This document shows, in pieces, positions 2,925 to 63,493 of a stretch of DNA of 64,000 nt; the stretch's first letter is position 1; every line of letters begins with the position of its first letter. Origin of the DNA: Octopus vulgaris. Its lineage: Eukaryota. The stretch spans positions 14,570,001-14,634,000 of the forward strand of contig OX597840.1 of assembly GCA_951406725.2 (NCBI GenBank), written 5' to 3'. Made by a program: the position numbers and the translations under genes. The notes beneath the pieces are model-generated. The model did no database searches. It was not told the origin of the DNA and saw only the letters and a program-made list of their open reading frames with translations.

Positions 2925-3445
2925 GGTCTTCAATGTGAAGGGGTCCCAATGCAAATACATATATCTTTTTTCCAGTGACGAAAAGTCACTTATCTTGAAA
3001 AAGTGTAAACAAGCAATAATAATTCTCTGAGCGAGGTATAAACAGTAGCTGCACGACAATGTGAAGTATATTTATCATTTAAATGTGGCTAACCACTAAG
3101 GGTGGATACCACTGTAGTTTGTAGCCCAGGAGAACATCATCTCCAGTTGGCTATTGACACACTTTCTGTGCCCTATCAGTATTTGCAAAGGGAAGCCATC
3201 CTTCTCATCTCCAATCTGATGTGATATGCATGGACCCTGCTTTCTGGGTATTTACCCGTTGTCAGTGCACTACAATCACCGGTCTTTGATGCGAAGGGGT
3301 CCCAATGCAAATACATATATCCTTTTCCCAGTGACGAAAAGTAGCATCCACCCTTAGTGGTTGGCCACATTTAGGTGGCAAATATACTTCACATTGTTGT
3401 GCAGCTACTGTTTATACCTCGTTCAGAGATTTATTATTGCTTATA
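2925..3445 (-). mobile_element. Penelope-like pseudo-LTR fragment with partial tandem and inverted duplication
   Basis: Direct repeat 2925-2986 vs 3281-3342; inverted repeat about 3011-3108 vs 3346-3442; HHR-like motif at 3227-3270 (-). Confidence 0.65.
3227..3270 (-). ncRNA. Degenerate type I hammerhead ribozyme
   Basis: Minus strand: gtgca CTGACAA c-gggta-aa-taccc-a GAAA gcagg GTC catgca. Core differs from CUGACGA by one CpG transition; stems I and III are imperfect. Confidence 0.55.
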
Positions 3446-62141: not shown

Positions 62142-62676
62142 TGACTATATTTTGATGAATTTCTGTTAGCTTGCTTTCTTTGTTTTAACACATGGTGTAA
62201 TAATACAAGTGAAAATATTTTATGTTGTCAGACAATTTAGCATCTGATTTACAACATATTGGAAGAGAAAAATTTTTTTCTCTTGCCCTTATTTATAATT
62301 ATATTTATAATTTTCATCTTAAATGGTATTTTTCATATCCTGGCCACTGATAACATTTTTTAAGAAAATTTTATCCTTATATTACCGGAGCCTGGTGCAG
62401 CCTTCTGGCTTCCCAGATCCCCAGTCGAACCGTCCAACCCATGCTAGCATGGAGAACGGACGTTAAACGATGATGATGATGATGATGATGATTAGAAGTG
62501 TATATATATATTGTTATCACCATATTAATATGGCAGTCTTATAGATATAAGACTAAAAGCTGTCGCTGATTAGCTCCGTGAGGCCATCGCCTTAAGCTAG
62601 CTATTTGACACACAAACTGCGTCCATTATAACCTTTGAACAAGGGAGGTCAGCCGTTTCACACTGCTAGTCAGACA

Positions 62677-62719
62677 GCTTCAGACACGTTTCAGGGTATT
62701 TGCCCCTTGTCAATGTAGC
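62677..62719 (-). ncRNA. Minimal type I hammerhead, decayed by transitions
   Basis: Minus strand: gctaca TTGACAA gggg-caaata-ccct GAAA cgt GTC tgaagc; reconstructs to CUGACGA...GAAACGCGUC. Confidence 0.65.
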
Positions 62720-62843
62720 GTAGTCGACCCAGCAGGTGTCGCCACTGATCATCTCTGTTCGAAGGTTTTATTTACCTAGTTTCTGTGGAATACATCCACT
62801 TGTTTTCAATAATAGAAATATTAAAATTACTAAGTCTCTCTAA

Positions 62844-63022
62844 GAAGACAGACAAGCAGGAAGGAAAGGTCAAGTTAAGAGTGCGCGTCATAATTATTGA
62901 AATAAAACTTACTTGGAAGAGGACACGTGGTGTTATGTATGCATGTTTTATTTATTAAATTGTTATTATATGATTGAATGTCACACGTCCTCTTTCAAGA
63001 GAGACTTAGTAATTTTAATATT

Positions 63023-63059
<37 letters not shown>

Positions 63060-63283
63060 GTTTGTGTGTCTGTGTTTGACCCCACCAGTCATTTGACTGC
63101 ATCCATGCTGGAGCACCGCTTTTAGTCGAGCAAATGGACCCCAGGACTTATTCTTTGTAAGCCTAGTACTTATTCTATTGGCTCTTTTGCCAAACCGTTA
63201 ATTTACAGAGACGCAAAAACACCAACACCGGTTGTCAAGTGATGTTGAGAGAACAAATACAAACATACAAACATATAGACACT

Positions 63284-63323
<40 letters not shown>

Positions 63324-63493
63324 AAACTTACTTGAAAGAGGACGTGTGGCATTCAATCATATAATAACAATTTAATAAATAAAACATGCATACATAATAC
63401 CACGTGTCCTCTTCCAAGTAAGTTTTATTTCAATAATTATGACGCGCACTCTTAACTCTTTACTTGACCTTTCCTTCCTGCTTGTCTGTCTTC
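62844..63493. repeat. Inverted repeat (62844-62999 vs 63331-63493) with a family A SINE fragment in the spacer
   Basis: gaagacagacaagcagg...ctttcaag vs cttgaaag...cctgcttgtctgtcttc. Confidence 0.9.

Follow-up and report, generated by a model that had tools for sequence, protein, structure and literature searches.

A covarying and apparently undescribed RNA domain beside the hammerhead ribozyme of retrozyme-like repeats in the Octopus vulgaris genome

The window analysed here, a stretch of 64,000 nucleotides of the Octopus vulgaris genome (contig OX597840.1, positions 14,570,001 to 14,634,000), carries near its right end the main arm of an insertion of family B1 (62510..62848, minus strand), which comprises 339 nt of a 364-nt unit in circular permutation and is about 96% identical to other copies. 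Read along the minus strand, this arm contains i) a type I hammerhead ribozyme (HHR, 62719-62677) with its GUC at 62685-62683, predicted cleavage between 62683 and 62682, a core of the U3-A8 variant (UUGACAA), and a helix III of one pair plus a palindromic loop that reads CGCG in the family and CGUG in the window copy; ii) UCCCUU (62646-62641), 36 nt past the cleavage site, within a strand (62630..62646) of the helix closing a multi-branch loop, for which pairing with the upstream strand of a rod (62752..62767, minus strand) is predicted; iii) hairpin 1 (62623-62607; 6 bp, loop of 3-5 nt) and hairpin 2 (62603-62571; a base of 5 bp, a 2-nt bulge, one C-G pair, a 1-nt bulge, and an upper stem of 6-7 bp); iv) the 5′ strand of helix P4 (62559..62568), which closes the next domain and whose partner strand is absent from this copy, its end being site 1; v) hairpin 3 (62535..62554), which differs in length and sequence among subfamilies, and hairpin 4 (62519..62534), absent from the preliminary description and found 46-56 nt past hairpin 2 in all 19 subfamilies; and vi) a 3′ junction at end site 1 (62500..62510), +9 from hairpin 4 and followed by the (TA)n target. 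The letters thus confirm the HHR, UCCCUU, hairpins, and 36-nt spacing of the preliminary description; what it had called a short tail ending in (TA)n is more of the unit, with further helices. Nine differences from the family majority, one of which makes the single break in HHR stem I (62680) and another of which breaks the rod (62636), mark this as a decayed genomic copy.

A 36-nt piece of the B1 unit (unit positions 199-233, ending near end site 2) lies inverted at 62990..63025 on the plus strand, and is likely the other arm of the same insertion. Between the two B arms sits an inverted copy (62844..62999, plus strand, 94% identical) of the end of a neighbouring repeat at 63331-63493, which was the best match among 40 candidates scored; 62844..62999 is likely a template switch onto local sequence. 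The left arm as it stands consists of 36 nt of retrozyme joined to an inverted repeat end from about 300 nt away. An abundant SINE-like repeat, presumably a typical octopus SINE, occurs at 63086-63240 and many other places.

At the other end of the window is a family-A1 copy (2925..3342, minus strand) whose 419 aligned columns exceed one 357-nt unit, leaving a terminal redundancy of 62 nt. Its HHR and motif (3120-3270, minus strand) follow the same order with a spacer of 39 nt, as had been proposed, and an inverted, 5′-truncated arm (3340..3442, plus strand) ends at end site 2. The two copies are less foreign to each other than the preliminary description supposed when it called them otherwise unalignable: they have HHR stem II in common (27 nt at 85%), they are 73% identical over the motif and 41% in the spacer, and intermediate subfamilies bridge them. 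Hairpins 1 and 2 form in both window copies when folded alone (z -2.2 and -3.2); the 149-nt stretch originally flagged, folded alone, does not form the HHR fold (z -1.1).

Each of the two window elements derives from a non-coding unit of 353-364 nt that occurs in tandem and in circular permutation. Head-to-tail units read from the flanks measure 364 nt for B and 357 nt for A, with one type I HHR each; across six families the units are 353-364 nt long, within the range of about 150-400 nt typical of metazoan non-LTR retrozymes, have a GC content of 40-49%, share no ORF (on the circles, sense frames opened by ATG reach 18-52 aa at most and are unlike between families), and occur in arrays of dimers up to at least hexamers with a period of 353-364 nt. 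Each of the 19 subfamily majority sequences has a single type I HHR per unit with a complete core, in the CUGANGA, CCGANGA, or U3-A8 form, the last being a variant described for PLE HHRs in the accessible text of PMC4209133 and thus common to both. The HHRs are canonical metazoan type I, with a helix I of 6 bp, a helix II region of 13-16 nt, and a short helix III (insert of 4-8 nt, mostly palindromic) whose form points to dimer cleavage.

The preliminary description had assigned the elements to the pseudo-LTRs (pLTRs) of Penelope-like elements (PLEs), which carry minimal HHRs. That identity was rejected because i) what precedes the HHR is the remainder of the unit, with no RT + GIY-YIG ORF flanked; ii) nearby PLE fragments are not contiguous with the unit, and sampled PLE ends lack the motif; and iii) helix III is present, whereas the minimal HHR has no helix III and a long helix II. 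These are instead free-standing units, and by their features they fit the metazoan non-LTR retrozymes, cleavage and circles being predicted here. Metazoan non-LTR retrozymes are described in the available part of Cervera and de la Pena 2020 (PMC7229834) as short non-coding tandem units, 350-390 bp in mussel, and are like ours in having one type I HHR per unit, GC below 50%, and predicted branched circles. As far as that text goes they differ from the units here, the majority of whose copies are scattered through the genome, have inverted arms, and stop at one of two fixed 3′ ends. No cephalopod is named among the retrozymes in the accessible parts of PMC7229834 and the review PMC7761336.

First-look searches of the 2.8-Gb genome gave 2,764 and 771 candidates for the B and A repeats, respectively. 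A pattern for the hairpin-1 motif matched 3,972 times, against 6 for a reversed control pattern, and an HHR pattern 7,007 times, against 863 for its control; a pattern designed to exclude families A and B had 0 matches. From the fetched loci we took 208 full-length copies, of which 195 were sorted into the 19 subfamilies and 13 left out; 4 of the 19 rest on 2 copies each, and since pattern matches and DNA queries served to gather the subfamilies, others at a greater distance may have escaped. In all 19, UCCC lies 35-41 nt past the cleavage site, with CCC invariant, and hairpin 1 starts 54-64 nt past it. Linkage of motif and HHR was sampled in both directions: an HHR lies 45-67 nt upstream in 54 of 85 sampled motif copies (background, 35 of 1,530 windows), the remaining copies being 5′-truncated or decayed by eye. 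In turn, the motif was found in 33 of 70 HHR-pattern loci, and in 14 of 30 when the 40 hand-chosen loci are set aside.

Outside the Octopus genome analysed, the domain turned up solely in runs whose sequence is near-identical. B-type sequence occurs in four runs labelled as other organisms (968, 500, 12, and 6 contigs), and the two runs with 12 and 6 contigs may be contamination. Four runs presumed to be RNA gave contigs covering the unit only, with neither a silent control nor a usable back-joint. A metagenome pattern scan returned 66 matches, which we treated as chance and not as true motif copies, the best three scoring 18-22 bits with no upstream HHR by eye.

Hairpins 1 and 2 covary. Across the 19 pairs, the family majorities of the 19 subfamilies show 17 double changes on a single branch. 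Pairing is kept in 16 of these, where the null mean is 3.3 (sd 1.6) and 0 of 2000 null draws came as high; since a single family's structure supplied the pairs and the alignment itself supplied the tree, this figure is not a strict probability. Hairpin 1 accounts for 5 compensatory events and no breaking ones, with 113 of 114 family cells paired, and hairpin 2 for 11; in family K two hairpin-1 pairs have been replaced together. HHR stem I, the positive control, also covaries (11 vs a null of 3.4). In 28 real copies, picked from 38 for closeness to their own family, 93.8% of cells are paired and 11 of 18 pairs have changed on both sides, as in 0 of 500 shuffles, and slid registers pair only 29-51%; RNAalifold, unaided, predicts 15 of the 18 pairs. 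A second structured RNA thus does covary between diverged HHR families, at a fixed distance from the HHR, as the preliminary description had proposed from two copies. The GAUG that it listed as a feature is not a defining one, since the hairpin 2 loop varies (GAUG, GGCG, GGUG, GUGUG, GUUGAU, AGU); what is constant is the geometry of a 2-nt bulge, one C-G pair, and a 1-nt bulge. The motif is 47-73% identical between distant families, against 41-54% for the spacer and 40-56% for the following sequence in most pairs, and the invariant letters at the bulges and stems of both hairpins suggest sequence-specific recognition.

A protein-coding reading of hairpin 2, which had seemed possible from A versus B, fails on indels and compensatory changes. 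A local hairpin between UCCC and a GGGAG just upstream is possible in most families, and was rejected when its covariation proved not significant (2 double changes vs 0.8, p 0.17); that of hairpin 4 is likewise not significant (p 0.39). Rfam covariance models gave one unrelated match (E 7.7) on 381 nt, no match at gathering score on 8 loci, and over the whole window only microsatellite-driven miRNA-type noise among the 150 of 239 matches listed; this agrees with the earlier failure to place the motif, with the limited sensitivity implied by the fact that Rfam also missed these HHRs. SECIS elements carry an AUGA/GA quartet and an apical AA, and lie 3′ of a UGA-containing ORF; the alignment has no such quartet, no ORF, and no Rfam match, so that the motif is not a SECIS. 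We regard hairpins 1 and 2 as a real RNA domain beside the HHR, supported by covariation and apparently undescribed.

The predicted circles are strongly structured (circular MFE z -5.9 to -8.4). In these models the HHR lies at the end of a long rod, of which UCCCUU forms part of one strand enclosing the HHR; hairpins 1 and 2 are the first branches of the multi-loop, and are followed by P4 enclosing hairpins 3 and 4. The modelled domain is therefore larger than the 149 nt flagged, since P4 and hairpins 3 and 4 lie beyond hairpin 2. Of the 19 subfamilies, 12 have a P4 of at least 7 bp with changing sequence; for several of the other 7, the majority sequence stops short of the partner strand. Hairpin 1 is not formed in the predicted family E circle (probability 0.03). 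The predicted fold of the monomer has its first 50 nt paired to its 3′ end, which leaves the motif as a branch in the interior.

Insertion ends bear a fixed relation to this domain. In six families, 114 of 135 distinct 3′ ends fall at +8..+17 or +56..+77 from hairpin 4 (uniform expectation 8.9%), and only 2 of 135 fall within the motif; 5′ ends show no such clustering and extend past the cleavage site, with 10 of 161 within 5 nt of it. End site 1 is mostly single-stranded in the predicted circles (unpaired 0.66-0.92 vs a mean of 0.36-0.38). For B-type copies 59 of 68 ends adjoin (TA)n or (CA)n-like sequence, and for A1 just 22 of 58 adjoin a microsatellite; the (TA)n is best read as the insertion target and not as part of the unit. 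Both orientations are held at 11 of 27 B1 and 10 of 28 A1 loci, and more than one unit at 14 of 27 and 8 of 28. Units within an array are near-identical (in B2, 0.2 differences per 108 nt vs 2.8 between loci), as expected of rolling-circle copying, and also of local amplification or an uncut multimer template; inverted arms are hardly closer than separate loci (B1, 3.4 vs 4.4; B2, 2.0 vs 2.8). Partial tandems, an inverted 5′-truncated arm, two 3′ ends, and a microsatellite target together make up the anatomy of insertions mobilised by EN+ PLEs. The available account of EN+ PLE insertions (10.1101/2021.04.23.441226) likewise has partial tandems, an inverted 5′-truncated arm, an optional tail, and microsatellite targets; EN+ PLE units as described there and in the accessible text of PMC4209133 differ from those here, which have no ORF and an HHR with helix III, not a minimal one with long helix II.

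The same genome holds candidate helpers. Intact 775-781-aa RT+GIY-YIG ORFs, of which we take the 781-aa and 775-aa ones to be Neptune-type, are present in many copies, and also end in (TA)n. We sampled three autonomous PLE families, leaving out Poseidon-type, Naiad, and other PLE clades; in all three, an HHR or a motif resembling one lies close to the 3′ end, and (TA)n closes the element. In these three the hairpin motif model found nothing convincing (the best match, at 14.5 bits, is on the opposite strand, upstream of the ORF), and no homology was found between the units and their pLTRs, so that the absence of the motif counts against simple mimicry of the helper's end.

A PLE helper has been proposed for metazoan non-LTR retrozymes (PMC7229834 and PMC7761336, in their accessible parts), and would be common to them and the units here; Li, Clavereau, and Pollet (bioRxiv 10.64898/2026.07.22.740005), as far as that text is available, treat retrozymes as non-autonomous PLE derivatives. 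Their Xenopus retrozymes resemble ours in PLE co-occurrence, in the presence of monomers, dimers, and multimers, and in unit size; in the portion available, 24 of 57 Xenopus families match annotated TEs, nearly all of them PLE ends, whereas the units here have no homology to the three sampled pLTRs, and no common structure beyond the HHR is described. The review PMC7761336, in its accessible text, states that retrozyme repeats have no conserved motif pointing to a helper; the 19 subfamilies here have a common covarying domain. Closest in behaviour is the PLE protein of Anolis (the Poseidon element PAc; Frangieh et al. 2024, PMC11167929), which, according to the part of that paper available, needs RNA +20 to +172 past HHR stem II and starts copying at two internal sites. 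PAc and the units here are alike in required RNA just past the HHR, two internal starts, AT-rich targets, and read-through of the HHR site; from the same text, PAc is autonomous and its required region is coding, whereas our units are non-coding, and its tail measures 30-40 nt, compared with about 45-60 nt here.

The domain is likely gripped by a borrowed Penelope-type copying enzyme or by a host protein. Because the Anolis enzyme combines two internal starts with required RNA past the HHR, much like the geometry seen here, our best reading is that of a PLE-binding or positioning domain, and on that analogy we give roughly even chances that hairpins 1 and 2 and the following helices form a protein-binding domain recruiting a Penelope reverse transcriptase in trans. 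Tandem transcripts would self-cleave, probably as dimers because helix III is palindromic, and the cleaved units would be ligated into circles by a host ligase, as in known retrozymes; hairpins 1 and 2 and the later helices would then let a PLE RT-endonuclease, the candidate partner, load in trans. As with the Anolis enzyme, the PLE protein would nick (TA)n and prime internally on the RNA at two fixed sites downstream, and copying that runs round the circle or along an uncut multimer would yield copies of more than unit length. In favour of this reading, besides the covariation, the invariant letters, the clustered 3′ ends, and the mostly single-stranded end site 1, intact Penelope-type ORFs share both the genome and the (TA)n target with the units. 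Against it, besides the lack of a convincing motif match in the three sampled PLE families, i) end site 1 lies about 60 nt past hairpin 2 and adjoins a different hairpin, hairpin 4; ii) the ends coincide with AU-rich stretches able to pair with a (TA)n primer, so that microhomology alone may set them; iii) only 22 of 58 A1 ends are at a microsatellite, and the family E circle lacks hairpin 1; and iv) the inverted arms of B1 and B2 are scarcely more similar than separate loci. Among the four functions proposed in the preliminary description, reverse transcriptase recognition has the best support, if indirect; end protection fits poorly because the motif lies on an interior branch and the first 50 nt are paired with the 3′ end.

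We put forward with considerable reserve, as a rather doubtful extension of the PLE-binding reading, that hairpins 1 and 2, P4, and hairpin 4 would make up the element through which an animal retrozyme is recognised by, and so recruits, a Penelope reverse transcriptase, and would be the first of its kind to be defined. Such a parasite-specific aptamer would have been maintained by selection through many successive subfamily turnovers, would not be copied from the helper's end, and would fix two rolling-circle start sites.

It is possible, if on the unlikely side, that a host protein binds hairpins 1 and 2 in order to ligate, stabilise, or localise the circle, or to keep the HHR off once circular. 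The motif is kept in all 19 non-autonomous subfamilies and was not found in the three autonomous PLE families sampled, a distribution that would suit a requirement peculiar to small circles, and the accessible part of PMC7229834 argues that a factor besides self-pairing must hold the HHR of circles inactive and that their closure is the work of host ligases; this reading would leave unexplained why the two 3′ end sites keep a fixed distance from the domain, and no host factor or known binding motif was found for it (no Rfam match). That the hairpins are mere architecture, the most stable branches of a unit that must fold as a compact branched circle, we think improbable: the whole unit is indeed structured and P4 is kept while its sequence changes, but the motif sequence is conserved more than the spacer or the following part in most pairs, and its specific bulge geometry would be needless for pure stability. 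Very improbable indeed is that the motif drives cap-independent translation or is a second self-cleaving ribozyme, as the lack of a matching known family might allow, since the ORFs are short, differ between families, and are nowhere conserved, the changes are compensatory and loop indels would break any frame, two plain hairpins with variable loops have no conserved multi-helix core, catalysis lacks support, and only 2 of 135 3′ ends fall within the motif. We give equally little credence to a DNA-level internal promoter, for which one could cite that tandem units need transcription, that no promoter is known for them, and that the B families carry a stretch we liken to the B-box consensus; compensatory and G-U-type changes mark RNA pairing, and the B-box-like stretch is missing from the other 16 subfamilies.

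The element class is known, and the covarying domain is apparently undescribed. Our literature search, with most subscription papers outside it, found no account of retrozymes that share a conserved structured domain, nor of retrozymes from cephalopods; the published mussel retrozymes may show the same hairpins, which would lower the novelty. Since this genome combines the covarying domain with two start sites that could be mapped and with Penelope ORFs that are young and intact, the question of which enzyme copies animal retrozymes into genomes becomes directly testable in the published in vitro assay.

Several further observations concern the repeats and PLEs at individual loci. Many 5′-truncated copies (L099, L102, L111, L115, L120, L133, L136, L141) break at or just before UCCCUU, the point at which the long rod would begin for an incoming reverse transcriptase, and this may be a stall site or a sampling effect. 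Other HHR-bearing repeats (L169, L205, L193, L198, L186, L203, L212) seem on visual inspection to have, 70-140 nt past the cleavage site, either a UCUCCCCUU stretch or a small hairpin like those described above; the motif model confirmed none of them, and gave no score at those places in L169, L205, and L193 (hairpin) or in L198 and L186 (UCCCCUU). The third of the PLE-like families sampled (L278-L289), left without a clade assignment, has an 833-aa frame without a Pfam match, and its HHR has a very long, branched stem II. The 781-aa RT+GIY-YIG family (L076-L083) has a 3′ HHR with a U3-A8 core, like retrozyme family B, and its 3′ region contains what we take to be repeated CCAAT/CRE/TATA-like boxes. 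Finally, L272 (G000:C1:27839000-27848900) represents a very young PLE family with a period of 4.27 kb, identical over 87 aa in the 150 copies listed; a 454-codon open frame overlaps its 775-aa RT-EN frame, suggesting a frameshift, and an HHR-like motif at its end has the core CCGAAGA, which retrozyme families M1 and M2 also have.
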